47,722 nucleotides of DNA, from the sequence record SRR20825019_53; one strand, given 5' to 3'. Numbering within the stretch: position 1 is the first letter of the stretch; each line of letters starts with the position of its first letter. Below the pieces are notes generated by a model. The model had not been told where the DNA came from, searched no databases, and worked only from the letters and a program-made list of their open reading frames with translations. A program made the translations under genes and the position numbers. This document shows positions 4,450 through 43,136 of this stretch, piece by piece.

Positions 4450-4569
4450 AATAACGATGAATAAATTAAAAGCGGCATTATAATATTTTTTTAGATACAA
4501 AAATCAATTATTAAATAATAATAATTTTATATTAATTTAAAACTATAAAAATAATTTAAAATATATTTA

Positions 4570-7233
4570 TTAAATGTTATCTCTTAAGGCTTTTTGTAAT
4601 ATTGATCCATTAAATATTAGGTCCATTTCATACTCTGTATATACTTCAAGTTTAAGCTTAATGTTTTTATCTTCATTTTGAATATTTTTAATTGAGCATT
4701 GTAATTCAGACAAAGGTAGAATTTTACTATCTATTTTTTCTAAATTAATTATTTCGCTGCCATCAAGTTTAGATATATCAAGATCTTTTTCTTGATAGCT
4801 AAGTGGTATAACACCCATTCCTATTAGATTAGATCTGTGGATTCTTTCAAAGTTTATTGCAATTACTGCTTTCACTCCTAGAAGTGAGGTTCCTTTAGCT
4901 GCCCAATCTCTTGATGACCCCGTTCCATATTCTTTACCAGCAAATATTACAAGGGGAGTTTTTTGTTTTAAGTATAATTTTGATGCTTGATATATACTCA
5001 TATCTTTGCCATCAGGATAATATTTAGTATAACCACCTTTTGATTCAGGGCATATTTTATTTTCAAGACGAATATTTGCAAGTGTTCCTCTGATCATTAA
5101 TTCATGATTTCCTCTTCTAGAACCATAGGAGTTAAAATTTTCTGAATTTATATTTTTAGATTTAAGATATTTACCAGCTTCAGAATTTAAGGGGATAAAT
5201 CCTGCAGGAGATATATGATCTGTTGTGATGGAATCGCCAAGTATTGCAAGAATTCTTGCATTTTTAATAGATATATTTGAATCCATATTAGGAGTAAACT
5301 CATCTAAGTAAGGAGGTTTTTTTATATAATTATTATCTTTATCCCATTTGTAAGATTTGTATTCTGGGATTTTAATAGAATTCCAAAATTCATCACCTTT
5401 ATAAATATCTTTATAATTTTCTTTATAAAAGTCTGGATTATTAATTTTAGATAATTCTCTTTCAATTTCTTTAAGGGGTGGCCATAAATCTTTTAGAGTA
5501 ATTTTTTTTTCATCATTTTGATTGAAATTAGCATTAGTTATATCAATATCTATTCTACCAAGTAACGAATATGCAATAACAAGAGGAGGGGAGGCTAAAT
5601 AATTAGCTTTAATATGCGGATGAATTCTTCCTTCGAAATTTCTATTACCTGATAATATTGAAGCTACTGTTAAATTTTGAGAAATAATTTTTTCTGATAT
5701 ACCCTGTTTTAGGTCACCAGAATTACCAATGCAAGTTGTGCATCCATATCCAACTATGTTAAATCCCAGTTTTTCAAGATAAAAATCAAGACCTAATTTT
5801 TTTAAATACTCAGTGACTACTTTAGATCCAGGAGCAATTGAGGTTTTAATCCATTTTTTTGGATATATTCCAAGCCTGTAAGCCTTTTTAGCAAGAAGTC
5901 CTGCTGCTATCATCACAGAAGGGTTGGAAGTATTTGTACAGCTGGTAATTGCTGCAAGAACTATGCTTCCATCATTTATGTCATTTACTATTTGTTTTTT
6001 GATATTAGTATTTTCTGTATTATAATTTTGTATAAAATTATTTTTAGTTTGATTAAGTAACACAAGATCTTGAGGCCTTTTAGGTCCTGATATACATGGT
6101 GAGATTTCAGTTAAATCTATTTCAATTAGATTTTTATTTGGCTTAAAGTTATTGTCATTCCATAAATTATTTATTTTTAAATATTTTTCAACTAATTCTA
6201 TATGATTTTTTGATCTACCTGTTGAATGCATATATTTTATAGTCTCTTCATCTGCAGGGAAATATCCACATGTTGCTCCATATTCAGGAGCCATATTGGA
6301 AATAGTTGCTCTATCTTGAAGAGAAAATAATTTTACAGATGGCCCTATAAATTCAACCATTTTACCTACTACATTTAGTTTTCTTAGTTTTTCTGTAATA
6401 TGTAATACTATATCTGTTGCTGTTATACCTGGCTTAATTTTCCCTATAAAATAAACAATAGCAATTTCTGGTATTTTTATATTTAATGGGAAACCTAGCA
6501 TTGCAGATTCTGCTTCAATTCCACCAACTCCCCATCCAAGAATAGATAAACCATTAATCATAGTTGTATGACTATCTGTTCCTACAAGTGTATCTGGATA
6601 TATTATTTTTTTATTTTCTATTTCTTTAATAGATGCAATTTCTGCTAAATATTCTAAGTTAATTTGGTGGCATATACCTTTTCCTGGGGGAACTAGTTTG
6701 AGCTTATTTATATTTTGCTGACACCATTTTAGAAATTTATATCTTTCATAATTTTGTTCATACTCTTTTTTTAAGTTATATATTTGAGCGTTATTAGTAC
6801 CAGAATAAATTGCATTTACAGAGTGATCTACTACTAGAGTTACTGGTATTTTTAGACTTAGTTTATTGGTCTTTATATTCAATTTGCTAGCTGTTTCTTG
6901 AATGGTTGCAAAATCTACAAGAGCAGGAACGCCAGTAAAATCCTGCATGAGAATTCTAGATGGATAAAATTCAATATTAGTATCTTTAAAGTTACTATTA
7001 AAAAAATCTTTTATAATATTGGGGCTTTCTTTTTGTTTGACCTTTTCTAGATTTTTACTGTTTAAATTTATTTTAAAATTTCTTAGGATATTTTCTAAAA
7101 TAATTCTTTTAGTATAGGGTATTGTATTTATATCAACATTATTTTCTTGGCATGCTTTTTTGATATCATAATATTGATAATTTACATCTTTTATATTAAA
7201 GTTAGATAAATAAAATTCTTTATCTTGGGGCAT
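4570..7233 (-). CDS. acnA: aconitate hydratase A
   Basis: QDFTGVP, GICHQ, GTDSHT, ITSCTNTSNP, GCTTCIGNSG, TTDHISPAG, GSSRDWAAKG. Confidence 0.98.
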   Translation of the reverse strand: MPQDKEFYLSNFNIKDVNYQYYDIKKACQENNVDINTIPYTKRIILENILRNFKINLNSKNLEKVKQKESPNIIKDFFNSNFKDTNIEFYPSRILMQDFTGVPALVDFATIQETASKLNIKTNKLSLKIPVTLVVDHSVNAIYSGTNNAQIYNLKKEYEQNYERYKFLKWCQQNINKLKLVPPGKGICHQINLEYLAEIASIKEIENKKIIYPDTLVGTDSHTTMINGLSILGWGVGGIEAESAMLGFPLNIKIPEIAIVYFIGKIKPGITATDIVLHITEKLRKLNVVGKMVEFIGPSVKLFSLQDRATISNMAPEYGATCGYFPADEETIKYMHSTGRSKNHIELVEKYLKINNLWNDNNFKPNKNLIEIDLTEISPCISGPKRPQDLVLLNQTKNNFIQNYNTENTNIKKQIVNDINDGSIVLAAITSCTNTSNPSVMIAAGLLAKKAYRLGIYPKKWIKTSIAPGSKVVTEYLKKLGLDFYLEKLGFNIVGYGCTTCIGNSGDLKQGISEKIISQNLTVASILSGNRNFEGRIHPHIKANYLASPPLVIAYSLLGRIDIDITNANFNQNDEKKITLKDLWPPLKEIERELSKINNPDFYKENYKDIYKGDEFWNSIKIPEYKSYKWDKDNNYIKKPPYLDEFTPNMDSNISIKNARILAILGDSITTDHISPAGFIPLNSEAGKYLKSKNINSENFNSYGSRRGNHELMIRGTLANIRLENKICPESKGGYTKYYPDGKDMSIYQASKLYLKQKTPLVIFAGKEYGTGSSRDWAAKGTSLLGVKAVIAINFERIHRSNLIGMGVIPLSYQEKDLDISKLDGSEIINLEKIDSKILPLSELQCSIKNIQNEDKNIKLKLEVYTEYEMDLIFNGSILQKALRDNI

Positions 7234-7380
7234 ATAGTTAGTTATATAAGTTAATAGAATATTTTAAATTTAGTATTAAATATTTAGTTTAGTTATAGAT
7301 TAGTTTTATGCAAGTAAAAACTTGATATATAAAAAAGAAGATTTATTTTCAAAAAAACTATATTTAAATTTATAATATTC

Positions 7381-8022
7381 ATGTTAACATGTTATAAAGC
7401 AGGGATTAAAATTGGAAATGAATTTCTATTTAGAAATATTTCATTTACATTAATGCCTGGATCTTGTGTATATTTAAATGGAAAAAATGGAAGCGGTAAA
7501 ACATCCTTACTAAGATCAATTGCGGGAGTTAGGGATATTGATGAGGGTGAAATTTTATTTCAAACTTTAGAAAGTAACTTAAGATTTATTAAAAGGGATA
7601 TAAATCAAAATTTATCAAATAATTATCCTATCATAAATTACATTGCTCACGATATTGGTGTTGAATTAGATTTTAGCGTGAATGATAATTTAAAATTTTG
7701 GTCAAGATATTTTAATAGTCAAAAAGCGTATGAAGCAGTAATTGAATTTTTTAATTTAAAAAATATTATTCATGAAAAATTACATAATCTTTCAAGAGGT
7801 ACTCAGAAAAGGGTTGCTATTGCTAGGTTAATGCTAATTCCTTCTTCAGTTTGGATACTTGATGAAATAGAAGTTAATATGGATAGTGAAGCATTAAGTA
7901 TGTTATATAATTGTATTATTACTAAGCTAGGTACTGGAGGTATTATTATAATATCTTCTTCTAAAAAAATTAATGCTTTTAATTTTTACCGGATTGATAT
8001 GGATGCTTTTAAAATTAGATAA
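7381..8022 (+). CDS. ccmA: heme ABC exporter ATP-binding protein CcmA
   Basis: Walker A GKNGSGKT, V.DNL.FW, LSRG.QKR, WILDE; followed by a CcmB-like membrane gene. Confidence 0.88.
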   Translation: MLTCYKAGIKIGNEFLFRNISFTLMPGSCVYLNGKNGSGKTSLLRSIAGVRDIDEGEILFQTLESNLRFIKRDINQNLSNNYPIINYIAHDIGVELDFSVNDNLKFWSRYFNSQKAYEAVIEFFNLKNIIHEKLHNLSRGTQKRVAIARLMLIPSSVWILDEIEVNMDSEALSMLYNCIITKLGTGGIIIISSSKKINAFNFYRIDMDAFKIR

Positions 8023-23356: not shown

Positions 23357-24508
23357 ATGTTTAGTAGAATATTTGGTTGTATAAAAAAATTTAATAACCA
23401 TAAACATAGTGCAATATTCTTTGGATATAGAAATTTTGGAGAACAAATAGAGGCCAAATTTATAGATCCTAAGTCAGATCTTGGTTTTAAAAGGTTGTTC
23501 AGAGACGAGTTAGTAATAAAATCTTTTATATCTGATTTTCTAAAAATGAATGTCAAGGAAGTGGAGTTTTTAGATACTCAAAATGATTACTTAGTACCAG
23601 TAAGTATGAGTGTGGATGTAAAATGCCGGACTGAAGAAGGTGAAACTTTTATTGTAGAAATGCAAAGATTTAACAATAAATATCAAGCTAATCGGGATTT
23701 TTTGTTTAAAACACAGGTGTATGTTGCCAACAATTTGCTTGAAACTTTTAAAGGTAACTCTAAGGCTATATTTTCAAGTATGGCTAGTGAAAACGCATTA
23801 ATGATGGATGAATTGGGTAAAATGAAAACTTCTTATTCTGAATTAAAACCAGTGCATTTAATTGCAATAATAGCTCCAAATAAAGATGGATTGCAGTCTT
23901 ATAAGTTTTTTGATGACGAGGTTCCTTTTAAAAGATATAAATTTCTAAACGAGGGGTTTTTGGATGAGGAGCGTAATGAAGATATGGGGCAAAAAGAGTT
24001 TCCAAATTCATTGTTTAGTCTTGCATTTTTAGAATTAAATAAGGTACATTTGGAAACTATAAAGGATTCCCATATCAAAGAATGGCTAGAATGTTTAAAA
24101 GATATACACTTAAAACATGAAGAGCCTGCAGGGTTGACTTCAGAGGGTGTTAAAAGGGCCTACTCTGTGTTAGATAAGGGTAAATTGACACCTGTTCAGC
24201 AGATGGAGATGGAAGATAAATTTTTTGAAGCGCAGGTGGTAAGAATGCAGGATGCTCAAGAAGTAAGAAAAGAGGAAATAATCAAGACAATTAAAAAAGA
24301 TATTATTACATACGATATGTTAACCAAAAAGAGTTTTACGCAAGAGGAAATAAAGAAGACTATGTCAATTACGCAAGATGAGATTGATATATTTTCCAGA
24401 AGTATAACAGAAGATGAAGAGATTATAGTAGAAGAGGTTCTTCCTTTAAGAATGACTGAGATTGAATTAACAGGAATCTCTGATAGTATCTTCATAGGTT
24501 CTAAATAA
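23357..24508 (+). CDS. Rpn family recombination-promoting nuclease / PD-(D/E)XK putative transposase
   Basis: F.DP..D.GFKRLF, VDVKC, FIVEMQ, Y..LKPV, FLEL.K, W...L motifs; codons look more G-rich than neighbouring genes. Confidence 0.92.
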   Translation: MFSRIFGCIKKFNNHKHSAIFFGYRNFGEQIEAKFIDPKSDLGFKRLFRDELVIKSFISDFLKMNVKEVEFLDTQNDYLVPVSMSVDVKCRTEEGETFIVEMQRFNNKYQANRDFLFKTQVYVANNLLETFKGNSKAIFSSMASENALMMDELGKMKTSYSELKPVHLIAIIAPNKDGLQSYKFFDDEVPFKRYKFLNEGFLDEERNEDMGQKEFPNSLFSLAFLELNKVHLETIKDSHIKEWLECLKDIHLKHEEPAGLTSEGVKRAYSVLDKGKLTPVQQMEMEDKFFEAQVVRMQDAQEVRKEEIIKTIKKDIITYDMLTKKSFTQEEIKKTMSITQDEIDIFSRSITEDEEIIVEEVLPLRMTEIELTGISDSIFIGSK

Positions 24509-28711: not shown

Positions 28712-29248
28712 GTGGAACATAAATGGTACATAATTCATACCCTTTCTGGGGGAGAAAGAGAAGTTAAGAGAATGATTCAAGATCAAGCTTCTAAAAATGG
28801 TATGAGTGATTATTTTCAAGAGGTTGTTATACCTTCTGTTGAGATTTCTGAAATACAAAGGGGAAAGAAGGTTAAAGTTGAAAAGAAAATTATGCCAAGT
28901 TATATACTTGTAAAAATGAAAATGGATGATAAAGCTTGGCATATGATCAATAAGATCCCCAAAGTAACCGGTTTTTTAGGTAATAGGGCAAGGCCTAACC
29001 CAGTTCCGGAGTCTGAGGTAAAAAGAGTATTTGATCAGTTAGAAGTAACTGCAAAAGATGCAGCTCTTGCTAAGAGATTTAATATTGGTGAAGAGGTAAA
29101 GGTTGTAGATGGTCCTTTTGAATCTTTTGTAGGAGTTATTGAAGAAGTTGAAGAGGCAAAATCGAGATTAAGGGTTTCTGTGACAATTTTTGGAAGAATT
29201 ACTCCTCTTGATCTAGCTTTTGATCAAGTAAAAAAAAATAACAATTAA
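28712..29248 (+). CDS. nusG: transcription termination/antitermination factor NusG
   Basis: WYIIHT.SG.E, P.Y..V.M, VTGF, KOW motif DGPF..F.G, IFGR.TP. Confidence 0.98.
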   Translation: MEHKWYIIHTLSGGEREVKRMIQDQASKNGMSDYFQEVVIPSVEISEIQRGKKVKVEKKIMPSYILVKMKMDDKAWHMINKIPKVTGFLGNRARPNPVPESEVKRVFDQLEVTAKDAALAKRFNIGEEVKVVDGPFESFVGVIEEVEEAKSRLRVSVTIFGRITPLDLAFDQVKKNNN

Positions 29249-29289
29249 ATATAATATAGTATAATAATTTGAAGAGGTAGATTTTAAAG

Positions 29290-29724
29290 ATGGCAAAGAC
29301 AGTAACAGGATATATAAAATTAACTATACCAGCAGGTAAGGCAAACCCGTCTCCACCTGTGGGTCCAGCCTTGGGAGCTAGGGGTTTAAATATAATGGAT
29401 TTTTGTAAGGCGTTTAATGCAGAAACTCAGTCTTTAGAAGCTGAAACTCCTGTGCCAGTAGTTATAACAGTTTATAATGATAAGTCTTTTCAGTTTGTAA
29501 CAAAAACTCCACCTGCATCTTTTTATCTCAAGAAATTTGCTAAAATTAGCAAAGGATCTCAGGCAACTAAGAAAGATCAATCAGTAGGTAAGGTGACTAT
29601 TGAAGATTGTAAAGAAATAGCAAAAATAAAAATGAAAGATCTAAATGCAAATACTGAAGATGCGGCTGCAAAAATAATTGCAGGTACTGCAGAATCTATG
29701 GGCCTTGAGGTAGTATATGAGTGA
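29290..29724 (+). CDS. rplK: 50S ribosomal protein L11
   Basis: [39 protein letters not shown] upstream. Confidence 0.99.
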
Positions 29725-30448
29725 TATAAAACATTCTAAAAAACTTTCTAAAAATCGCGAAAAAATAGAATCAAAAATTTTATCCGGTAAAACATATACT
29801 ATCGATGAATCAGTTAAGATACTTAAAGAAGTTTCGTTTACAAATTTTGACCAAACTGTTGAAGTTGTAATGAATTTGGGAGTAGACCCAAGACATTCAG
29901 ATCAAATGGTTAGAGGTATAGCCTCTATGCCTTCTGGAACCGGAAAGAACGTAAAAGTTGCAGTAATTTGTAAGGATACTAATTCTGATATTGCAAAAGA
30001 AGCAGGCGCTGATAGGGTTGGAGCAGAAGATTTAATTGATGAGATTAAATCAGGTAAAATAGAATATGATATATATATAACAACTCCTGATATGATGTCA
30101 TTAGTAAGTAGAGTGGCCAGAATACTAGGTCCAAAAGGATTAATGCCAAACCCAAAAATTGGTACTGTGACTACAGATATAGCGAAATCTGTCAAGAACA
30201 CAAAGAGTGGCCAGGTTGAGTTTAAAGTTGATAAGAATGGTATTATTCATGCAGGTGTTGGTAAGTTATCTTTTGATGATAAAGATATTATATCTAATAT
30301 AAAATCTTTAACAGGTTCTGTAGTAAAGGCAAGGCCATCTGGGGCTAAGGGTAATTATGTAAAATCTGTTCATTTGTCAAGTACAATGGGTCCTGGTATA
30401 AGTGTGGACTTAGCTTCACTTGAAATATCTTCTAAAACAAGAGGTTAA
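29717..30448 (+). CDS. rplA: 50S ribosomal protein L1
   Basis: [36 protein letters not shown]. Confidence 0.99.
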
Positions 30449-30449
30449 A

Positions 30450-30956
30450 ATGTTAAAATCAGAAAAACAAAAAGTTGTAGACACTGCATCATCTATATTT
30501 AAGGAGCATAGCTCTATCATTGTAACCAAGTATCAGGGTTTAGATGTAGGGATGATTTCTGATTTAAGATCAGAACTTGCTCAAAATGGTTGTAAATATA
30601 AAATAATAAAAAATAGTTTATCAAAAATAGCTATTAAAGATTCGGGTGTTTGTGATATAAGTGATTTCTTTACAGGGCCTGTGGCTATAGGATATTCTAA
30701 TGATCCAGTTTCTTTAGCAAAGGGACTTGTAAAATTTGCTAAGGATAATGACAATCTTAAGATAGTAGGAGGAATAATAGATAACCAAATCGTTAATCAA
30801 TCAGAAGTAAATGATCTTTCTAAACTTGCTTCTATTGAGGAGATTAGGGCTAAATTATTATATATGATTTCTGGTGCTGGTGGTAGGTTAGCGGCAACGC
30901 TAAATGCACCTGCTCTTCAGTTAGCTAGGGTTATAGGGGCATATGTTAATAAATAA
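30450..30956 (+). CDS. rplJ: 50S ribosomal protein L10 (start moved to ATG 30450, SD GAGGT at 30441)
   Basis: Y.GL.V...LR, IKNSL..IA, F.GP.AI; position after rplA. Confidence 0.96.
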   Translation: MLKSEKQKVVDTASSIFKEHSSIIVTKYQGLDVGMISDLRSELAQNGCKYKIIKNSLSKIAIKDSGVCDISDFFTGPVAIGYSNDPVSLAKGLVKFAKDNDNLKIVGGIIDNQIVNQSEVNDLSKLASIEEIRAKLLYMISGAGGRLAATLNAPALQLARVIGAYVNK

Positions 30957-30977
30957 ATTTAATTAATGGTAACTAAT

Positions 30978-31349
30978 ATGGCAGACTTAACAAAAATAGT
31001 AGATCAGCTTTCTAAACTAACAGTAATGCAAGCAGCTGAGCTTGTAAAAATTCTTGAGGAAGAATGGGGCGTTAGCTCTGCACCAGTAGCTATGGCGTCA
31101 GCACAAGCTCCTCAGGCTCAAGAAGCTCAAGAAGCAAAGACTGAATTTGACGTTGTGCTTACAGATGCAGGTGCAAGTAAAATAGCTGTAATTAAGGAAG
31201 TTAGGGCTATTACTCAGCTTGGTCTTAAAGAAGCAAAAGACTTAGTTGAAGCAGCTCCAAAACCAATTAAAGAGGGTGTTTCTAAAGCTGAGGCTGAAGA
31301 GCTTAAAGCTAAGCTTGAAGCAGCTGGGGCTAAGGTAGATTTAAAATAA
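30978..31349 (+). CDS. rplL: 50S ribosomal protein L7/L12
   Basis: [36 protein letters not shown]. Confidence 0.99.
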
Positions 31350-31493: not shown

Positions 31494-34400
31494 ATGCAAG
31501 AAAACATAACTCTAAACAGGCGTTTTAGGAAAGATTTTGGTCAAACAGATGTGGTGGCAGCTATTCCTAACTTAATTGAAGTTCAAAAAAATTCTTATGA
31601 TAGAAATTTTCTTCAATTAGATATACCTGTTGATAAAAGATTGAATAGCGGTTTACAAGCAGTTTTTAATTCAATATTTCCAATTGAAGATCCATTAGGT
31701 ACAGCAAGCCTTGAGTTTGTTAAGTATCATTTTGATCTACCTAAATATGATGTTGAAGAATGTTCTCAAAGGGGGGTAAGTTATTCTGCTCCACTAAAAG
31801 TAACTTTAAGACTGATAGTATGGGATGTTGATGAGGATACTGGTTCTCGTGATATTAGAGGTATAAAAGAGCAGGAGGTTTATATGGGAGATATACCTCT
31901 TATGACAATTAATGGAACATTCATTATCAATGGAGTAGAAAGAGTTGTAGTTTCCCAAATGCACAGATCACCAGGTGTATTTTTTGATCATGATTCAGGT
32001 AAAACCCATTCATCTGGTAAATTTCTTTATTCAGCAAGAATAATCCCGTATAGAGGTTCTTGGATAGATTTAGAATTTGATGCAAAAGAGCTAATGCATT
32101 TTAGGATAGATAGAAGAAGAAAATTACATATTACTACTTTACTTTTTGCTCTTGGCATGTCTAAATCTGATATAGCTGATTATTATTATGATAAAGAAGA
32201 ATATGTAAAAACTAAAACTGATTGGAAAATAGAGCTTAAAGAAAATAGTTTTGATGCGCAAAGTATAGCTCATGATCTTGTTGATGATGCTACTGGTAAA
32301 AAGCTTTTAGAAAAAGGAAGTAGAGTTAACCCAAGAATAATTAAAAAGCATCTTGAAAATGGTGTAAAATTTATCAGATTTACAGAAGAAGATTTAGTTG
32401 GTAAGTATTTAGCTGAAGATATTGTTAATGAAGAAACAGGTGAGATAGTAGCCCAAGTTGGAGAGTATATTACAACAGAGATAATTGCTCAAATTAATGA
32501 ACTAGGCCTTGAGAAGTTACCAGTTATTAAATTTGGATTTCAGCAAGGTTCATATTTATTAGATACTATGAACACTGATAAAAGCACTGATTTTGAAAGT
32601 GCGACTCTTGAAATATTCAAGATATTAAGACCAGGAGAACCTCCTACCTTAGAAGCTGGTCAGGCATTATTTAATAATTTATTTTTTGATCAAAGTAGAT
32701 ATGATTTATCTGATGTTGGTAGGCTTAAACTTAATACTCGTACTTTATTAGATATTCCTGAAGATACAACTATTTTAACTAAAGAAGACATTAAAACAGT
32801 TATTAAGATTCTTATCGAAATTAAAGATGGAACTGGTTCAGTTGATGATATAGATCATTTAGGTAATAGAAGAGTAAGATCTGTTGGTGAGCTTATTGAG
32901 AACCAATTTAGAATTGGTCTTTTAAAGATGCAAAAAACAGTTATTGAAAAAATGGGAGTGGTTGAGGTTGATACAGTTATGCCTCATGACTTAATAAATC
33001 CAAAAGCTTTAGTTTCTGTTGTTAGGGAATTTTTTGGTACATCTCAGTTATCGCAGTTTATGGATCAAACAAATCCATTATCTGAAATTACACATAAAAG
33101 GAGAATTTCTGCTTTAGGCCCAGGAGGTTTAAACAGAGAAAGAGCTGGTTTTGAAGTTAGGGATGTTCATCCTACTCATTATGGTAGAATATGTCCTATT
33201 GAAACACCAGAAGGTCAAAATATTGGTTTAATTAACTCTCTTGCTACTTTTGCAAGAGTGAATAAGTATGGTTTTATCGAAAGTCCTTATAGAAAGGTTT
33301 TAAAGGGTAAGGTTACAGGGGAAGTAGTATATTTATCTGCTATTGATGAACTTGAAGTCAAAATAGCACCAGTTGTTGAGATTGATAATAATGGTAGTCT
33401 TAAAGGTGATCTTATAAATTGTAGGGTTGATGGTGATTTTGTAATGGTTCCTCCTGATGAAGTCGAGTATGTTGATGTTGTGCCTATGCAGCTTGTATCT
33501 GTTGCGTCTGCCATGATTCCATTTCTTGAGAATAATGATGCAAACAGAGCATTAATGGGAGCGAACATGCAGCGTCAAGCTGTACCTTTATTGAGAAGTG
33601 ATGCTCCGCTTGTTGGTACTGGAGTTGAAGGGATAGTTGCTAAAAATTCAGGTGCTGCTTTAGTTTCACTCGAGGACGGTGTAGTTGAGATGGTAGATTC
33701 ATCAAGAATTGTAATTAGAGGTATTGAAAGTAGATCAGATGGTTCTCCTGGAGTTGATATATATAATTTAGTTAAATTCAGAAGATCTAATCACAGTACT
33801 TGTATTAATCAAAAGCCACTAGTTAGAATAGGCCAGAATGTTAAAAAGGGAGAGATCATAGCAGATGGTCCTAGTATGGATAGAGGTGAAGTTGCTCTTG
33901 GTAGAAATGTACTTGTAGCATTTTTATCTTGGAGTGGTTACAATTTTAAAGATTCAATTGTAGTTTCTGAAAAACTAGTAAGTAAAGATGCATTTACTTC
34001 AATTCATATTGAAGGATTTGAAATTATTGCAAGAGACACAAGGCTTGGTCCTGAAGAAGTTACTAGGGATATACCAAATATTACTGATGAACAATTATCT
34101 CATCTTGATGAGGTTGGTATTGTAAATCTTGGTGCAGAAGTTGAAGCTGGTGATATTTTAGTTGGAAAAGTAACTCCAAAGAGTGAGTCACCAATGACTC
34201 CAGAAGAAAAATTATTAAAAGCTATTTTTGGAGAGAAAGCTGCTGATGTTAGAGATTCTTCTTTAAGAGTGCCTCCTGGAGTTTCTGGAACAGTTGTAGA
34301 AGTTAGAGTATTTTCAAGAAGGGGTATTGAGAAAGATGAACGTACTTTGTTGATTGAAAAGCAACAAATTGATCAGCTTACTAAAGATAGAGATGATGAA

Positions 34401-35594
34401 CTTAAAATTATTGAGTTTTTTGTCAAAATGAAATTTATATCTTTGTTTAAAGGTCAAAAAGTTGCAAAGTCTCCAAAAGCAATAAAAATTAGTGGAGTTT
34501 TAACAGAGGAAATCATTAATAATACTTCTTTAGCTAATTTAAAATTAATTAATTTTGAAGAAGAAAGTCTAAATCAATCTTTAAATCTTGTAATAGATCA
34601 TTATGAGAGTAAAAGAGATGAAATTAATGATAAGTTTCATAGTAAAGTACAGAAACTTCAAAGTGGAGATGATTTGCCTCAAGGAGCGCTTAAAGTTGTA
34701 AAAGTATTTATAGCAACAAAACATAGGCTTCAATCTGGAGATAAAATGGCTGGTAGACACGGAAACAAAGGTATTGTTTCAAGGATAGTACCTGAAGAAG
34801 ATATGCCATTTCTTGAGGATGGGACCGTTGTAGATATATTATTAAATCCTCTGGGTATACCTTCAAGGATGAATGTAGGACAGGTTCTTGAAACTCATCT
34901 TGGATGGGCTTCTGTTAATTTAGGTAAAAAGATCGATGAGATGCTTGATGATTATCATAGTTCTAAAGAAAATGTTGATGATCTTAAAGTATATGTTGAA
35001 AAAATCTTCGGTGAAAATAGTGAAGTCTGTAAGAAAGTTAAAAGTATGTCAGATGATGAGTTTATTAAATTCGTTCGTCCTATGAAAGATGGAGTGAGTT
35101 TTTCAACTCCTGTTTTTGATGGAGCTAAAGTTGATGATGTTGAGAATATGCTTTTATTGTCAGGAGTTTCAAAAACAGGTCAATCAAGGCTTCTTGACGG
35201 GAGGACAGGTGATTATTTTGATAGAGATGTTACCGTTGGTTATAAATATATGCTTAAACTTCATCATTTGGTAGACGATAAGCTTCATGCAAGATCAATT
35301 GGTCCTTATAGTTTGGTTACTCAGCAGCCACTTGGTGGTAAATCACATTTTGGAGGTCAAAGATTTGGAGAAATGGAATGCTGGGCGTTACAAGCATATG
35401 GAGCAGCATATACTTTACAAGAAATGCTTACAGTTAAGTCAGATGATGTTACTGGAAGAATAAAGATATATGAATCAATCATTAAAGGAGATAGTAATTT
35501 TGAGTATAGTGTTCCGGAATCATTTAATGTAATGGTAAAAGAGCTCAAGTCACTTTGTTTGAACATTCAGTTTAAACAAGATAGTGAAGAATAA
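31494..35594 (+). CDS. rpoB: DNA-directed RNA polymerase subunit beta
   Basis: [44 protein letters not shown]; own stop codon (not fused to rpoC). Confidence 0.99.
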
Positions 35595-35614
35595 GTTTTA
35601 AAGGGATAAAAAAT

Positions 35615-38600
35615 ATGGCACAAGAAATTAATTTTTATGGTCAAGTAAATAATGTCCAAGAATTTGACAGTATTAAGGTAAATATTGCAAGTCCTGAAGA
35701 TATTAGATCAAGTTCTTATGGAGAGGTTAAAAAGCCTGAAACTATAAATTATAGGACATTTAATCCTGAAAATGATGGTTTATTCTGCGCAAAAATTTTT
35801 GGTCCTGTAAAAGACTATGAATGTAGATGCGGTAAATATCGCAGAATGAAATATAAGGGTATAACTTGTGAAAAATGTGGAGTTGAAATTACTACTTCAA
35901 GAGTAAGAAGAGATAGGATGGGTCATATTGAGCTTGCGTCTCCTGTTGTACATATTTGGTTTTTAAAAACTATTCCTTCAAGGATTAGTACTCTTTTAGA
36001 TATAACATTAAAAAAGCTTGAGAGGATTTTATATTTTGAAAATTATGTAGTAATTGACCCAGGTGTAACACTTCTTAAAGCTGGTGATTTACTTTCAGAG
36101 AGGGAATTTGCTGATGCTCAGGATGAGTATGGTGAAGATAGTTTTGTAGCCATGATGGGAGCAGAGGCTATTGAAAAGTTACTTAAAGATATAGATCTTG
36201 AGGTTCTCAAAGATTTGCTCAGAGAGGAGCTTGCAAATACTAATGCAGAAGCTAAAAGAAAAAAAATAACAAAAAGATTAAATTTAGTAGAGGATTTCTT
36301 AGATTCAGGCAATAAACCAGAATGGATGGTTCTTAGAGTACTGCCTGTAATGCCACCAGAGCTAAGACCTCTTGTTATGCTTGATGGAGGACGATTTGCA
36401 TCTTCTGATTTAAATGAGTTATATAGGAGAGTAATAAATAGAAATAATAGATTAAGTAGACTACTAGAGCTTAAGGCTCCTGAGATCATTGTACGAAATG
36501 AAAAAAGAATGTTACAAGAATCAGTTGATGCACTTTTTGATAATAGTAAAAAGGGAAGAGTAGTTAAAGGAAGTACAAAAAGGCCTTTTAAATCTTTAAG
36601 TGATATGCTTAAAGGTAAACAAGGAAGATTTAGGCAGAATTTACTTGGTAAGAGGGTAGATTATTCTGGAAGATCTGTAATAGTTGTTGGTCCTGAACTG
36701 AAGTTACATCAATGTGGTATACCTAAAAAAATGGCTCTTGAGCTGTTTAAACCATTTATATATGCAAAACTTGAAATGTATGGTATTGCAACTACAGTTA
36801 AGGCTGCTAAAAAAATGGTTGAGCAAGGTAAAGCTGAAGTTTGGGATATTCTTGAGGAAGTTATAAGGGAACATCCTGTATTATTAAACAGGGCTCCAAC
36901 TCTTCATAGGCTTGGTATACAAGCTTTTGAACCTCAATTAATAGAGGGTAAAGCTATATCATTGCATCCTTTGGTTTGTGCTGCTTTTAATGCTGACTTT
37001 GATGGAGACCAAATGGCTGTGCATGTTCCTTTATCTGTAGAAGCCCAGATAGAGGCAAGAGTACTTATGATGTCTACAAATAATATTCTAAGTTCTGCCA
37101 ACGGTAAACCTATTATAGTACCTGAAGAGGATACAATTTTAGGAATTTATTATCTAACATTATCAATTGATAATGAACCAGGTGAGGGTATGGCTTTTTC
37201 AAAGATGTATGAAGTTATGCAAGCTCTTCATTATAAAGCAATAACAATTCACACAAAAATAAAATTTAGAATAAAATCAAATAACAAGGACTCTCCTTAT
37301 GAGATAGTAGAAACTACTCCGGGAAGGTTGATGATATATGAAAATATTCCAGTATATGCAGATATTAAGTTTGAACTGATAAATAAAAACATGACCAAAA
37401 AAGAGGTTTCTGTTCTTATTGATAGTGTTTATAGAAATTGTGGTCAAAAAGCTACTGTTATATTTGCAGATAAGCTTGTGGGTCTTGGTTTTAAATATGC
37501 AACAGAGTCTGGAGTATCTGTTGGAATTGAAGATATGGTAGTTCCTAATTCTAAATTTGAGCATATAAATAAAACTCAAGAAGAAATTAAAGTTTTTGAA
37601 CAGCAATATTCAGAAGGTCTTATTACATATAAAGAAAAATATAATAAGGCAATTGATGCATGGTCTCATTGTACAGATCAGGTTTCAGATGATCTAATGA
37701 AAAAAATAGCTAGAGGTTATAGGCTTGAAGAGGATATTAGTAACCAACGAAAGTTAAATTCTGTTTATATGATGGCAGTTTCTGGAGCTAGAGGTTCTGC
37801 AGCTCAGATTAAGCAGCTTGCGGGAATGAGGGGTTTAATGGCTAAACCTTCTGGTGAGATTATAGAAAAGCCAATTACTTCGAATTTTAAGGAGGGCCTT
37901 ACTGTGCTTGAATATTTTAATTCGACTCATGGTGCTCGAAAAGGTTTAGCAGATACAGCTCTTAAAACTGCTAACTCTGGATATTTAACAAGAAGGCTTG
38001 TTGATGTAGCCCAAGATTGTGTAGTAACACAAGCTGATTGTAATACTGAAAATGGAATTATTATAAGGCCAATACTTGATGGTGGAGAAGTAGTTGTATC
38101 TATTTCTGAGCTTGTACTTGGTAGAACTATTATTGGTAATATTTATCATCCAGTAACTGGTGATTTAATAATTGAAGAAGGATATTTAGTAGATGAGGTT
38201 GCTGCTGAAAAAATTGAGCGTGCTTTAGTAGATTCAGTTAAAGTAAGATCTGTTCTAACTTGTGAAGTAGAAGATGGTTTATGTGCTAAATGTTATGGTA
38301 GGGATCTTGCAACTGGAGACCAAGTTGCAATTGGTGAAGCTGTTGGTGTTGTTGCTGCCCAATCTATAGGTGAGCCAGGTACTCAGCTTACAATGAGAAC
38401 TTTCCATATAGGTGGTACTGCTACAAGAAGAGCAGAAGCTTCTTCTATTGAGGCTCCATATGAAGCAGAAGTAAAAATAATTAATGAGAATTATGTTACT
38501 AATTCAGAGGGGCAAAAAATTGTTATGAGCAGAGCTTGTGAAATATTACTACTTGATGTCAAGAAGCAAGAAAGGGCAAGATATAAAGTTCCTTATGGTT

Positions 38601-39781
38601 CTATTATGCTTATTAAAGATGGTTCTAAAATTAGTCAGGGTGATAGACTTGCTGAGTGGGATCCTCATACACTTCCAATTATTACTGAAAAATCAGGTAA
38701 GATTGAGTTTCAAGATATTAAAGAAGGTGTTTCTTTAAGGGAAGTGCAAGATGAAACAACTGGTATAACTAGTAAAGTTATTACTGAGCAAAGACAGCAA
38801 ACTTCAAAACAGCAAATAAGACCAAGGGTACATATATTAGATGATGAAGGTAATACTATAATACTTGCAAATGGTCTTGAGGCTAAATACTATATTCCTG
38901 TTGGAGCTGTACTTAATGCTTCTGATGGAGATAATATCAATGCAGGTGATGTAATAGCTAGAATACCAAGAGAATCTAGTAAAACAAAAGATATTACTGG
39001 TGGTCTTCCTAGGGTTGCTGAGATTGTAGAAGCTCGTAAGCCAAAAGATAATTCAATAATTGTTGAAACAGACGGTAGGGTTGAGTTTGGTAAGGATTAT
39101 AGAGCTAAAAGAAAAATTAATATTATAGGTGATGATGGTGAGATAAATTCTTCATATATCATACCAAAAAGTAAACATATTATTGTTAATGAGGGCGATT
39201 TCGTTAAGAAGGGGGATATTATAGTTGATGGAAGCCCAGTGCTTCAGGATATACTTAAAGTTATGGGTGTTGAAAAACTTGCAAGATATATGGTTGATGA
39301 AGTTCAGTCAGTTTACAGGCTTCAAGGTGTTAAGATTGATGACAAGCATATTGAAGTTATTATTAGGCAGATGCTTCAGAAAGTTGAGATTAATGATACT
39401 GGAGATACAACTCTTCAGATAGGTGATAAAGTTAATAAATGGGAACTTGCTGAAATTAATGAAAAATATGCTAAAAAAGGTTTAAAAGGTGCTAAGGGAG
39501 AATTGATTCTTCAAGGTATCACTAAAGCATCTCTTCAGACAAGGTCGTTTATATCAGCAGCATCCTTCCAGGATACAACAAGAGTATTGACAGAGGCTGC
39601 TATTGCAGGAAAAAGTGATAAGTTAAGAGGCCTCAAAGAAAATGTTATTGTAGGAAGGTTAATACCTGCAGGAACTGGTTTTTATGCAAGAATAGCAAAG
39701 CGTCAAGCTCAAGAAAAAGATAAAGAATATTTAGTTAATTCTTCTTCTGAAGAGGAGCATATTCTTGATAAGAAGGATTAA
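35615..39781 (+). CDS. rpoC: DNA-directed RNA polymerase subunit beta'
   Basis: Zn-finger Cys, [45 protein letters not shown]. Confidence 0.99.
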
Positions 39782-40010: not shown

Positions 40011-43000
40011 ATGTATAAAGATATCTTAGCAGAAATTTCGTTAAAATTTGGCAATTATTTAAGTAAATCTGATGCTTATGAATGTATAAAAGGATTTATA
40101 TTTGATGGATCAATTTTTAAATTAGATCTTAAGGAATTTATAGAGATTCTAGATATAATTGATTTAGAAGTTAGGGAGTTACTTATAAAATCATCCTCAA
40201 AAGGTGATATTGAAGTTATTAATTATTTATTTAGTTTAAAAGATAAAGCTTGTAGTGATAGTTTTTTATATAATAGATATACATTACTGAATTCTTTCAT
40301 AAAAGCAGCTGAAAACGGCCATACGGATATATTGCAATATATTTTAGATAGAATAAATGATAAAAAATTTCAAAATATTATTATTCATTCGAGCGGTAAC
40401 TCGCCATTTAAGTTAGCTGTTATAAATGGACATCTTAATACAGTAAAATATATAGCTTGGTTAACTGATCTTAAAGAAGTTGATTACTTAATTCATTCTA
40501 TTGATAATGATTATAAATACATAACTCAGTCAATAAAAAATGGTCATATTGAGACTATAAGATATTTAATAGAGCTTTGTGAGGATAATGATTTAAAACA
40601 AAATATGATAAATAGATGTAAAGAAATTTTTTTTACATCAGCTGTTGAAAATGGCCATATTGAAATTGTTAGGTTTCTTTTAAAATTGGTTCTTACTTCT
40701 AAAGGAGCCAAGAAAATGGTTTTAGATAGGTATGATTTAAGAGAAATACTAGGAGATGGAGTAGAAGCAGTATTATCAGTAGGATTTGGTGTTTCTTTTA
40801 GAATTGCATTAAATAGAGGACATGAAGAAGTAGTGAAATATTTACTAAATTCTACATTATCAAAGAAGAAATGGGATAAAATTATAAACTCAGAGGATAA
40901 TAGTTTTTATATTGAAGCTGCTAATAGTGGAAAAATAGAACTTCTTAATGAAATACTTAACTATACAAAAGATGAAGGTTTTAAAGAAGAAATGATTCTT
41001 ATATGTAGATCTATTTCTTTTAGAGATGCTGCTAAAAATGGTAAAATTGAAGTATTAAATAAATTGCTGGAACAATCTAAGGATCAAAATGAAAAAAATG
41101 CAATTATACATTTTAATGGAAATAATCCATTTTTAAATGCTGCATTTAGTGGTAATTTAGAAGTAATGAAGTATTTATTGGAAATAGCTCAAGATTCTGA
41201 TAAAAGAGAAGAAATGCTTCATTGTAATAATGAAGAACCATTTAGACTTGCTTGTAGCAGTGGAAATTTTGAAGTTATAAAGTATTTTTTAGATCTTGAA
41301 CAAGATAAAGAAAAAAAAGAAGAAATTATTCATCGGGACTCAGATATTTTGTTTCGTTTTATAGTGATGTCTGGAAAGCTAGATCTTGTTAAGTATTTTA
41401 TTGAATTGACTCCGGATCCAGAAAAAAGAGATAAAATGATTCATTCAAATTGTGACGAAGCTTTTAGGGTGTCTGCTGCAAATGGGTTTATAGATATCAT
41501 GAAGTATTTAGCTCAATTAACAAGTGATCCAGTTAAAATAAAGCAAATGATCAAAGCGGATAATTATGCTTGTTTGCGTTATGCTTTTAGTAAGGGTCAA
41601 TTAAATGTACTGAAATATCTACATGATATAGGAGGTGAAGATGTGACTAATGAAATGTCTGATTCAAAATATGAGTATTTAAGTATTAATAACGGACAAT
41701 CACAATCTATTATATATAACATCACTAAAATTCTTAAATATGATATAATAAAATATTCGATGGAAAATCTTAAGGAACTAAATGAATGCCAATTTCTAAT
41801 ATTATCTGATAAAGATTTTATGAGCTTTTTATTAGAACAAGCTTATGAATTAATTAAATCAAATAGTTTTGAATCATTTGATGATTTATTTACAGTCTAT
41901 TTCTTAGATATTGGTATTTGTGATGGTTTCAATGAGTTAATTGATTTATTTTTTAAATCTTTAGATAATAATAACATTCTAAAACTAAAGAAAGATTTTA
42001 TAAATGAAAAGCAAGATATAGTAGGTTCTTTAGTGGGTAGCCTTATAGATTTAAGTCTAAGAAATAATAATCTAGAGGCTGTAAAATGTATGCTGGGGTT
42101 TTTTAATGCTAAGTCAGATTATTTTAACCGCTTTGTTAGTTCTAGGCTTTATCACTTTGCATATGAAAAAAACACACTAGCTACTTTTAAGTATTTATTT
42201 AGTTTTGATATAAATATTGAGACTAAATCAAAGGCTATAAATGAATATTTTAAAGTAGTATATTTACCAAGTGGTTTTGTTAATTATAATATTGATTTTA
42301 GTTCTGTAAAATATTTGATTTCACTTACTGATGAAATGCATGCAAATAAGAGGATTGAAATTATGCATAATGCATTTGGTAATGCTTTTTATAAAGGGTC
42401 ATTAGATACTATGATACATATACTAAAGCTTGAGCCAAGAAATCATGAAGGAATTATAAATTCAAAATTTAATCTAAATTATAATTTACCATATACTCCA
42501 TTATATACATCTAATGTTGTTGATTTTGCAGAAAAGATCAAACATATTTGTATATTGTCTCCATTTCATGACTGGACTAATGAGTTTGCTGAACTTAAAC
42601 CGCGATACATAAATATAGAACAAGAAATAAAACCTTATCTTGGTATTAATATCAAGTCTTTAAAAAATTTTGCTACTTGTTGTAAAAATTTGTTTTCAGC
42701 AGTAAGTAATGTAAATCCTAACAATATAGAAAAGTCTAGTTTTTTTAATTTACCAGTAGAAATTATATATAAAATAGCTGGATATGTTGCAGAAGTTGAA
42801 ATTGAAGATTATGTCAGAATAAAATCATCTATTTCAGCATTTACTTATAATGAAGTCAATTATAACAGTGAGTTTAAAGGATTTATTTCAAGATATGAAG
42901 AATTATTAGAAGCAGTTTCTTGGAATAATAATGGTGATATAGTATCTAAAGATAAAGAAGCTGAAGTAGAAACTAGTCAATATAATAGATTAGCTTCTGT

Positions 43001-43136
43001 TTTAGGTCCACTATTAGGAAGTATGAATGAACTTATTAATAATGGATTAAATTATCATTGGGAAATTGGTGAAGCTCTTAATAGGCAAATAAATTCGGTA
43101 GGTGATTCTTCAGATATGGAAGGTGATCAGGGTTAA
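40011..43136 (+). CDS. ankyrin-repeat protein with C-terminal F-box-like motif (candidate host effector)
   Basis: 13 clear F..A..NG..E..KYL repeats plus about 3 degenerate ones; FFNLPVEIIYKIAGYV near the C-terminus. Confidence 0.88.
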   Translation: MYKDILAEISLKFGNYLSKSDAYECIKGFIFDGSIFKLDLKEFIEILDIIDLEVRELLIKSSSKGDIEVINYLFSLKDKACSDSFLYNRYTLLNSFIKAAENGHTDILQYILDRINDKKFQNIIIHSSGNSPFKLAVINGHLNTVKYIAWLTDLKEVDYLIHSIDNDYKYITQSIKNGHIETIRYLIELCEDNDLKQNMINRCKEIFFTSAVENGHIEIVRFLLKLVLTSKGAKKMVLDRYDLREILGDGVEAVLSVGFGVSFRIALNRGHEEVVKYLLNSTLSKKKWDKIINSEDNSFYIEAANSGKIELLNEILNYTKDEGFKEEMILICRSISFRDAAKNGKIEVLNKLLEQSKDQNEKNAIIHFNGNNPFLNAAFSGNLEVMKYLLEIAQDSDKREEMLHCNNEEPFRLACSSGNFEVIKYFLDLEQDKEKKEEIIHRDSDILFRFIVMSGKLDLVKYFIELTPDPEKRDKMIHSNCDEAFRVSAANGFIDIMKYLAQLTSDPVKIKQMIKADNYACLRYAFSKGQLNVLKYLHDIGGEDVTNEMSDSKYEYLSINNGQSQSIIYNITKILKYDIIKYSMENLKELNECQFLILSDKDFMSFLLEQAYELIKSNSFESFDDLFTVYFLDIGICDGFNELIDLFFKSLDNNNILKLKKDFINEKQDIVGSLVGSLIDLSLRNNNLEAVKCMLGFFNAKSDYFNRFVSSRLYHFAYEKNTLATFKYLFSFDINIETKSKAINEYFKVVYLPSGFVNYNIDFSSVKYLISLTDEMHANKRIEIMHNAFGNAFYKGSLDTMIHILKLEPRNHEGIINSKFNLNYNLPYTPLYTSNVVDFAEKIKHICILSPFHDWTNEFAELKPRYINIEQEIKPYLGINIKSLKNFATCCKNLFSAVSNVNPNNIEKSSFFNLPVEIIYKIAGYVAEVEIEDYVRIKSSISAFTYNEVNYNSEFKGFISRYEELLEAVSWNNNGDIVSKDKEAEVETSQYNRLASVLGPLLGSMNELINNGLNYHWEIGEALNRQINSVGDSSDMEGDQG
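40182..41625 (+). repeat. protein-level tandem ankyrin-like repeats, mostly 37-aa (111-nt) period
   Basis: Example unit FRDAAKNGKIEVLNKLLEQSKDQNEKNAIIHFNGNNP = 37 aa; repeats are diverged at DNA level. Confidence 0.8.

Follow-up and report, generated by a model that had tools for sequence, protein, structure and literature searches.

In the RNA polymerase of Escherichia coli, an acidic cluster is formed by the beta' residues D460, D462, and D464 and the beta residues E813 and D814 (Turtola et al. 2018, PMC6237748, 10.1101/410746). The same work describes the second metal (Mg-II) at two positions, one held by E813 and D460 ("MG2s") and the other by D814, D460, and D462 ("MG2h"). As a member of this five-residue cluster, which binds the catalytic Mg in all multisubunit RNA polymerases, beta Glu813 has been treated as invariant in the literature, and its Thermus equivalent, together with that of D814, was called apparently invariant in evolution (Kireeva et al. 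2012, PMC3533926). Here we describe the rpoB and rpoC genes in a stretch of DNA of 47,722 nucleotides from sequence record SRR20825019_53 (hereafter the window, meaning the entire stretch), where beta Glu813 is replaced by Lys and the facing residue of the beta' subunit, 504, is Glu. The loss of Glu813 was found to co-occur with a gain of beta' Glu504 in three separate clades.

The surroundings of these two residues are described in several published accounts. Beta' Q504 forms part of the E-site wall, and the E-site overlaps the site of tagetitoxin (PMC6237748, 10.1101/410746), in agreement with what had been stated in an earlier reading of the window made from its letters alone (the sequence-only reading). 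The E-site holds non-cognate nucleoside triphosphates (NTPs) and backtracked RNA (10.1101/410746, 10.1101/2024.06.20.599782). As published, beta' 504 and its neighbor 505 lie directly opposite beta 813, with 504 within salt-bridge reach. A modelled Arg at beta' 504 is able to make a salt bridge to beta Glu813 (10.1101/410746, legend of Suppl. Fig. S6), and in closed-complex Thermus simulations the equivalent of beta' D505 is hydrogen-bonded to the main-chain NH of the E813 equivalent (PMC3533926).

Several engineered changes in the pocket have been reported. E813A was among the variants with significantly compromised catalytic activity (PMC6237748), and E813A and D814A were tied to a loss of Mg-II retention (PMC5856549). 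Substitutions of E813 inhibited cleavage less than those of D814, and the Q504R substitution, which mirrors variation between species, raised cleavage five- to tenfold (10.1101/2024.06.20.599782). The yeast Rpb2 E836A enzyme was slow and error-prone, beta N1099 was named as a further "switch" residue, and Lee et al. 1991 is given as reference 48 for beta E813 with the description "Ec slow elongation" (all in PMC3533926).

The rpoBC genes of the window

The window proteins were aligned to the beta and beta' subunits of the E. coli K-12 rpoBC locus (L078), which serves as the numbering reference and reads GYNFEDS with E813 in beta and IIVPSQD with Q504 in beta'. The relevant features are as follows.

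31494..35594, + strand: rpoB (RNA polymerase beta subunit), 1366 amino acids, intact, by open reading frame (ORF) and translation
33948..33950, + strand: AAA codon of Lys819 in the motif WSGYNFKDS, in the column of E. coli beta Glu813, the first residue of the acidic pair E813/D814, by sequence and alignment
33951..33953, + strand: GAT codon of Asp820 in the column of E. coli beta Asp814, kept (GYNFKDS), by sequence
35615..39781, + strand: rpoC (RNA polymerase beta' subunit), 1388 amino acids, intact, by ORF and translation
36989..37009, + strand: NADFDGD motif of the catalytic Asp triad (E. coli beta' N458-D464), intact, with Asp at D460, D462, and D464 and Asn at N458
37124..37129, + strand: GAA GAG codons of window RpoC Glu504 and Glu505, in the columns of E. 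coli beta' S503 and Q504, by sequence and alignment
37130..37132, + strand: GAT codon of Asp in the column of the E. coli beta' "switch" Asp D505, kept, by sequence
28712..31349, + strand: nusG-rplK-rplA-rplJ-rplL, just 5' of rpoBC, by Pfam matches to NusG/KOW, L11, L1, L10, and L7/L12

In E. coli terms, the window thus carries beta E813K and beta' S503E/Q504E. The AAA codon at 33948-33950 had been noted in the sequence-only reading as K819 of RpoB in the motif GYNFKD, and the second Glu of PEED in RpoC had been assigned to the column of E. coli beta' Q504; the translation bears out the former and the K-12 alignment the latter. The motif PIIVPEED had also been placed at 37121-37132, where PEED is indeed encoded (CCT GAA GAG GAT), while the whole octapeptide spans 37109-37132.

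The acidic pair Glu813-Asp814 beside Mg-II is incomplete in the window RpoB, with Asp814 present and Glu813 changed to Lys. Despite this Lys, the two proteins are, by their profile scores, clear orthologues of bacterial beta and beta'. RpoB scored 1756 bits against the NCBIfam model TIGR02013 (cut-off 801), with residues 10-1359 covered, and RpoC scored 1733 bits against TIGR02386 (cut-off 963.5). The gene order nusG-rplKAJL-rpoB-rpoC, as identified by Pfam on the five upstream ORFs, is the canonical housekeeping context of rpoBC. The window has a GC content of 27.6%, and the closest RpoB in the protein collection shares 74% identity over residues 700-1000, with such matches among Rickettsiaceae-type bacteria, e.g., Tisiphia and Rickettsia. 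Judged from its operon context, the window rpoBC therefore looks like an ordinary housekeeping operon of an AT-rich Rickettsiales bacterium.

Compared with E. coli RNA polymerase, the differences concern the same two positions, with Glu813 and Gln504 in E. coli and Lys813 and Glu504 in the window. The Asp triad (D460, D462, D464), beta D814, and beta' N458, R425, R731, and K598 are shared, as are the trigger-loop residues Q929, M932, R933, and H936. The E. coli rpoB E813 laboratory mutant of Lee, Kashlev, Borukhov, and Goldfarb (PNAS, 1991), which is said to be E813K, is altered at the same position as the window but as a single change, without a change in beta'. At the beta' 504 equivalent of Thermus, the residue is Arg (Arg783). 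The E. coli E813A enzyme is catalytically compromised (PMC6237748), whereas in the window a non-acidic residue at 813 is the natural state of an apparent housekeeping enzyme. The yeast Rpb2 E836A enzyme concerns the homologous Mg-B residue and, being a eukaryotic engineered single change, shows the cost of an uncompensated loss (PMC3533926); unlike that change, a natural Ala813 was seen in this study only with beta' Glu504.

Occurrence of Lys813 and Glu504

Glu at beta 813 had been described as near universal in the sequence-only reading, and the surveys agreed with this: it was present in 118 of the 120 RpoB sequences nearest to the window and in all 137 background RpoB. The remaining two of the 120 carry Lys, namely P0098 (GHNFKDS) and P0114 (GNNFKDS). 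At beta' 503-504, the 120 nearest RpoC read DK (67), SQ (48), TQ (3), TK (1), and EE (1, P0141), and 63 further RpoC from a search seeded with P0141 read DK (50), SQ (6), EE (4), TQ (2), and SK (1).

Other natural occurrences of Lys813 were identified with the degenerate DNA motif WxGxN[FY]KDxI, which was scanned over the genome_contigs collection (one genome per species), and with a stricter version scanned over metagenome_contigs. As a sensitivity check, the scan motifs at the protein level fit 149/154 and 143/154 of the collected RpoB. The genome_contigs scan returned eight stretches, two of them RpoB-like: G001, a metagenome-assembled genome (MAG) of the Rickettsiales, and G002, a MAG of the Deltaproteobacteria. 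The other six were chance matches outside rpoB and were discarded. The stricter scan returned a single stretch, L013, a 9.9-kb contig of 57% GC that encodes GYNFKDS and PVIVPSED (S503, E504) together. Similarly, G001 reads NFKDS in RpoB and PVIDPDED (D503, E504) in RpoC.

As a candidate counter-example that would combine K813 with PSQD, G002 was rejected: its normal full-length rpoB is accompanied by a divergent rpoB-like second copy, broken in two, and it is this copy that carries the Lys. This copy (L002 1-2834, - strand) is located directly downstream of the full-length gene (3508-7662, NFEDS). It is composed of two ORFs of 549 and at least 404 amino acids with the Pfam Rpb2 domains 2, 3, 45, and 6, reads NFKDS followed by strong divergence after the motif, and looks like a decaying or neofunctionalised tandem duplicate.

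In the RNA polymerase literature searched, which leaves out most subscription journals and supplementary files, no natural loss of Glu813 was described, and E813K, Q504E, K504E, and E813R were found in no paper. E813Q, E813A, and Glu813 were mentioned only in two mutational studies cited above.

Independent origins of the paired change

A phylogeny of RpoC was constructed with FastTree (LG+gamma) from an 800-residue region of 199 distinct sequences and rooted on the G002 sequence. Glu504 was confined to three clades. The clade containing the window (support 1.0) has as its sister group 107 sequences, every one of them DK (parent support 0.92); the G001 clade (support 1.0) has four sisters of the SQ or SM type; and L013 stands alone as sister to eight SQ sequences (support 0.97). 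The same three groups were recovered in an RpoB phylogeny of 154 sequences, from which column 813 had been removed and which was rooted on E. coli; here 113 sequences with Glu813 form the sister of the window clade. For the sequences compared, these trees give beta' Glu504 at least three separate origins.

Outside the three clades, E813 was found in 137/137 related RpoB and E504 in 0/199 related RpoC, where column 504 is occupied by K (120), Q (78), or M (one). Within the clades, 504 is E in 16/16. The two columns also stand out from the rest of the proteins. Among 508 RpoB columns conserved at 97% or more in the 137 background sequences, none but column 813 deviates in each of the three lineages, and column 504 is the only one in RpoC where the three lineages converge on one residue absent from the background. 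The window proteins are otherwise conservative: RpoB deviates at seven of the 369 columns that are at least 99% conserved in its 137 relatives (T141V, D192E, L409T, E813K, I818V, I1243L, and L1339F), with E813K as the sole radical change, and RpoC deviates at four of 360 such columns in 199 relatives.

By these alignments and trees, the gain of E504 and the loss of Glu813 co-occur beyond expectation in independent lineages, as is looked for in a coevolving pair. The sequence-only reading had proposed a natural compensation between the subunits and had named covariation of 813 with 503-504 across the Rickettsiales as a check, with a wide occurrence of PEED beside a normal E813 as the outcome that would speak against it. 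The association was present, with the pairing found in three separate clades and residues other than Glu813 found only with E504, and the combination of E504 with E813 was seen in two genomes only. These results support the compensation that had been proposed.

The window clade

The window clade includes six RpoC, all with EE at 503-504, and six RpoB, all with K813. The RpoB members are the window protein, P0098, three members of the P0098 cluster (all GHNFKDS), and P0114, those other than the window being derived from other assemblies; the RpoC members in the tree are P0002, P0265, P0267, P0247, P0141, and P0246. The motif PIILPEED was read in P0247, P0141, P0246, P0265, and P0267. P0098 and P0247 were taken as neighbors on one contig, since the longest contig recorded for each has 17087 bases; for the pairs other than these and the window (P0141, P0246, P0265, and P0267; P0114), the RpoB and RpoC states were counted separately. 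The window forms the deepest branch, and its RpoC is only 67-71% identical to those of the other members, and the Lys/Glu pair has therefore been kept over a long divergence.

In the P0098 cluster and P0114, a further change affects the Tyr that precedes Lys813 by three residues (E. coli Y810), giving GHNFKDS and GNNFKDS, and the window keeps GYNFKDS.

The sister group of the window clade has Lys504 and Glu813, a combination that recalls the Arg504-Glu813 ion pair proposed in 10.1101/410746. Compared with such lineages of basic 504, the polarity in the window is the opposite, with the base on beta and the acid on beta'. The sequence-only reading had suggested an inversion of an ancestral pair of beta Glu and a basic or polar beta' residue. 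The Lys504/Glu813 state of the sister group agrees with this, and E. coli Q504 is not the best comparison; the ancestral state itself is ambiguous, as is discussed below with the proposed mechanism. A polarity swap from Glu813/Lys504 to Lys813/Glu504 in the window lineage is therefore plausible from the tree, but not established.

The G001 clade

Nine of the 30 genomes nearest to G001 form a clade with it included (G001, G403-G407, G225, G344, and G324), whose members share 85-100% identity with G001 over 800 RpoC residues, with next relatives at 65% or less. All nine read PDED and thus carry E504. In contrast to this uniformity, beta 813 varies among Lys (G001, codon AAA), Ser (G405, TCC), Ala (G403, G406, G225, G344, and G324; GCC or GCT), and Glu (G404 and G407, GAA). 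The presence of four states at 813 in one small clade that is entirely Glu504 suggests that Glu504 probably preceded the changes at 813 and relaxed the constraint on that position.

The 21 more distant relatives read SQ (15), TQ (4), SM (1), and SK (1) at 503-504. All 20 of them for which both sites were read combine Glu813 with Q, K, or M at 504; G410, without an RpoB read, and G007, without an RpoC read, were left out of the paired table. Counts of non-Glu813 to Glu813 were 7/2 in the G001 clade and 0/20 among the relatives (Fisher p = 2.3e-5, uncorrected for phylogeny). A single rpoB match was found in each of the 31 genomes around G001.

Loss of the Gre cleavage factor was considered as a companion change and rejected, as PF01272 was found in G001, G404, G225, and G406 and in the control G013 (5/5).

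In G404, a 5.9-kb island separates rpoB from rpoC (L079 4207-9964, contig C82), and the two genes are adjacent in G225. Among the products of the island are a cytidylyltransferase-like protein, a CYTH (triphosphate tunnel) protein, and a pair of HIT-domain proteins; another three of its ORFs have no Pfam match.

Frequency in wider samples

Larger samples were searched with an RpoC DNA motif for the segment NN[IL]L-x4-G-x-P-[hydrophobic]2-x3-E-D. In the order of G001, the Glu504 motif was found in 4/401 genomes (G001, G225, G344, and G324), and 329/401 had the motif when any codon was allowed at 504. In the class sample, it was found in G001 itself (1/401) and in 0/400 others; as a control, the general motif matched 74/81 genomes of a smaller sample, where the listed rows besides G001 were CAR or AAR by eye. 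One of the ordinary Gln504 rows in the class tallies belongs to G450, an unpublished genome on which no claim rests. In the phylum sample, which had no general-motif control, the Glu504 motif was found in G001 (1/226) and in 0/225 others.

At beta 813, a codon of the form NBN (Ala, Ser, Gly, Val, Thr, etc.) was found in 3/401 genomes of the order sample, namely G225, G344, and G324, all with GCT. The four Glu504 genomes of this sample are hence exactly the four that lack Glu813, G001 being included through its AAA codon (p = 9e-10, uncorrected for ancestry).

Other rare states of beta' 504 were also observed in the Rickettsiales. Met (PSMD) was found in G368 (L030), which keeps Glu813, and Leu was found in G090 and G043 of the order sample (codons CTA and TTG), neither of which matched the NBN pattern at 813.

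Proposed mechanism

In nearly all bacteria, the pocket is lined by beta Glu813 and faced by beta' 504, a position taken by Gln or Lys and in some lineages by Arg. In the window, the carboxylate is instead on beta' (Glu504, together with Glu503), with Lys at beta 813, beside Mg-II and the NTP entry E-site. We propose that beta' E504 supplies or balances the charge of the Mg-II/E-site pocket and thereby frees beta 813, and that in the window the two residues form an ion pair of inverted polarity; a probability of roughly 0.7 is assigned to this reading of the sequence comparisons. The pocket would need at least one carboxylate, from either 813 or 504. The pairs observed were E813 with Q, K, or M at 504, A813, S813, or K813 with E504, and, rarely, E813 with E504; E813 with L504 was also counted as a pair, where the L504 genomes G090 and G043 were judged only by their failure to match the NBN pattern. 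Among the sequences examined, no intact gene with K813, A813, or S813 was seen together with Q504 or K504.

According to this proposal, Glu504 would maintain the negative charge of the pocket, so that Glu813 becomes redundant or electrostatically unfavorable and is replaced. An ion pair between Lys813 and Glu504 in the window would have a combined side-chain reach equal to that of the Glu813-Lys504 pair expected in the sister group. Mg-II would be held by beta' Asp460 and Asp462 and the retained beta Asp814, that is, in the "MG2h" position described by Turtola et al. If the proposal is true, the enzyme is predicted to differ in Mg2+ dependence, in intrinsic RNA cleavage or fidelity, and in how it binds ligands of the E-site.

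Several points weigh against this reading. For cleavage, D814 was reported to be in a better position than E813 to hold Mg2+ #2 (10.1101/2024.06.20.599782), so Glu813 may matter less than its conservation suggests. Ala813 or Ser813 cannot form an ion pair with Glu504, and G404 and G407 keep Glu813 beside Glu504. Since E504 occurs with Ala813, Ser813, and Glu813 as well as with Lys, a salt bridge cannot be the whole story, and that part of the model covers the Lys variants only. The Lys813-Glu504 contact itself would follow from published modelling of other residues at those positions. In both trees, the Glu813 genomes G404 and G407 are nested among Ala813 genomes, and the G001 clade thus appears either to have regained Glu813 or to have lost Glu several times in parallel. 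With the entire DK group as the sister of the window clade, the ancestral 504 of this clade is ambiguous among K, Q, and E. The association is built on three independent events only, and the rule that one carboxylate is needed would be an induction from few lineages. In addition, the scan of 813 in the order sample covered NBN and Lys codons and left out Gln, Asn, His, Asp, and Tyr; and the denominators of the wider samples are samples of partly incomplete genomes searched with degenerate DNA motifs, where absence means that a state was not found there.

Alternative explanations

Among the alternatives, the one that fits best is that Glu504 was selected first for another property of the E-site, such as a ligand, a regulator, an inhibitor, or NTP handling, and that the change at 813, to a neutral or basic residue, only relieves the excess of negative charge from Glu504 and Glu813. 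Glu504 would then assume no part in holding the metal, and the pocket would simply tolerate one net charge. The G001 clade, where Glu504 is fixed in nine of nine and 813 varies among E, A, S, and K, fits such an order of events. In favor of this explanation, 504 is also positioned in a site that overlaps that of tagetitoxin and holds non-cognate NTPs and backtracked RNA (10.1101/410746, 10.1101/2024.06.20.599782), and the Mg-II "switch" residue beta N1099 (PMC3533926) is also changed in two of the three lineages. However, this explanation names no ligand or selective agent. GreA was found in all four of the clade genomes examined as well as in the control, so loss of the cleavage factor was not the trigger. 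Both explanations predict the same covariation, which sequence data cannot apportion between them, and we consider selection of Glu504 without a metal role unlikely.

A second alternative is relaxed selection in reduced endosymbiont genomes, by which the two changes would be unconnected, slightly deleterious products of drift that co-occur through shared ancestry. The genomes do have a host-associated look: the window combines 27.6% GC with an ankyrin-repeat protein beside rpoC, the G001 clade has about 30% GC and assemblies of 1.1-1.8 Mb, and many further changes near the active site are found in the latter. Drift would nevertheless have to account for the few deviations of the window at ultra-conserved columns (7/369 in RpoB and 4/360 in RpoC), for the order sample of 401 genomes, where NBN codons at 813 were found only among the four E504 genomes, and for the uniformity of the sisters of the window clade (113 RpoB all E813 and 107 RpoC all K504). 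The Lys/Glu pair is moreover retained across a clade with 67-71% RpoC identity, and the third lineage, L013, has 57% GC, which speaks against general decay. This explanation is accordingly regarded as very improbable.

A last alternative is that the window sequence was wrongly read or assembled, or that its gene copy does not function. A second, normal rpoB could lie outside the window, and G002 carries K813 only in its split second copy. This alternative is scarcely credible given two full-length ORFs in a canonical operon, the same changes in five other RpoB and five other RpoC of the clade from other assemblies, and one rpoB match in each of the 31 genomes around G001.

Implications of a proposed charge relocation

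The preferred reading, in which Glu504 takes over the charge and frees 813, may extend beyond the window. Tentatively, and with less confidence than for the window itself, the negative charge beside Mg-II, which in all cellular RNA polymerases is kept on the second-largest subunit (beta Glu813, Rpb2 Glu836), may be portable to position 504 of the largest subunit, having moved at least three times and freed 813 to become Lys, Ala, or Ser. If so, the Mg-II/E-site pocket of these enzymes would be built differently, and their Mg2+ affinity, cleavage, fidelity, and ligand sensitivity would probably be unlike those of all polymerases studied. The window enzyme is read here as an RNA polymerase of the usual bacterial type whose Mg-II/E-site charge has been relocated or inverted in nature, an interpretation supported by convergent evolution in the sequences compared.

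Natural, long-lived enzymes without Glu813, always accompanied by one specific change in the partner subunit, amount to a ready-made double-mutant cycle. The combinations K813/E504, A813/E504, S813/E504, and E813/E504 provide a graded natural series, and the variants separate what is indispensable in the Mg-II site, namely the Asp triad and Asp814, from an exchangeable charge. They also make testable the debated point of whether Glu813 holds Mg-II in a "structural" or a "hydrolytic" position. For annotation and drug-target work, the pocket cannot be taken as uniform in the Rickettsiales.

Additional observations

Besides 813 and 504, a second and conservative change, R1174K in beta', is common to all three Glu504 lineages. 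The residue is Arg in 191 and Lys in two of the background sequences, and Lys in 6/6 of the window clade, in L013, and in 5/9 of the G001 clade. The "switch" residue beta N1099 (Thermus N872, PMC3533926) is Thr in 9/9 of the G001 clade, Ser in L013, and Asn in the window clade. The G001 clade is additionally altered at beta N673, N677, M681, G682, Q686, and L1101, and G001 itself carries beta' R933N.

Two other ORFs of the window are typical of host-associated Rickettsiales: a 1041-amino-acid ankyrin-repeat protein encoded directly after rpoC (40011-43136, + strand) and a PD-(D/E)XK transposase-family ORF located 5' of mutS (23357-24508, + strand). Among the Rickettsia-like RpoB and RpoC collected, P0017, P0256, and P0249 are recorded under the names of insects or a tick (Pseudolycoriella hygida, Chrysoperla carnea, and Ixodes persulcatus), the first two on contigs of 140-190 Mb. 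Such records mean that symbiont sequence was integrated into the host genome or was assembled along with it.

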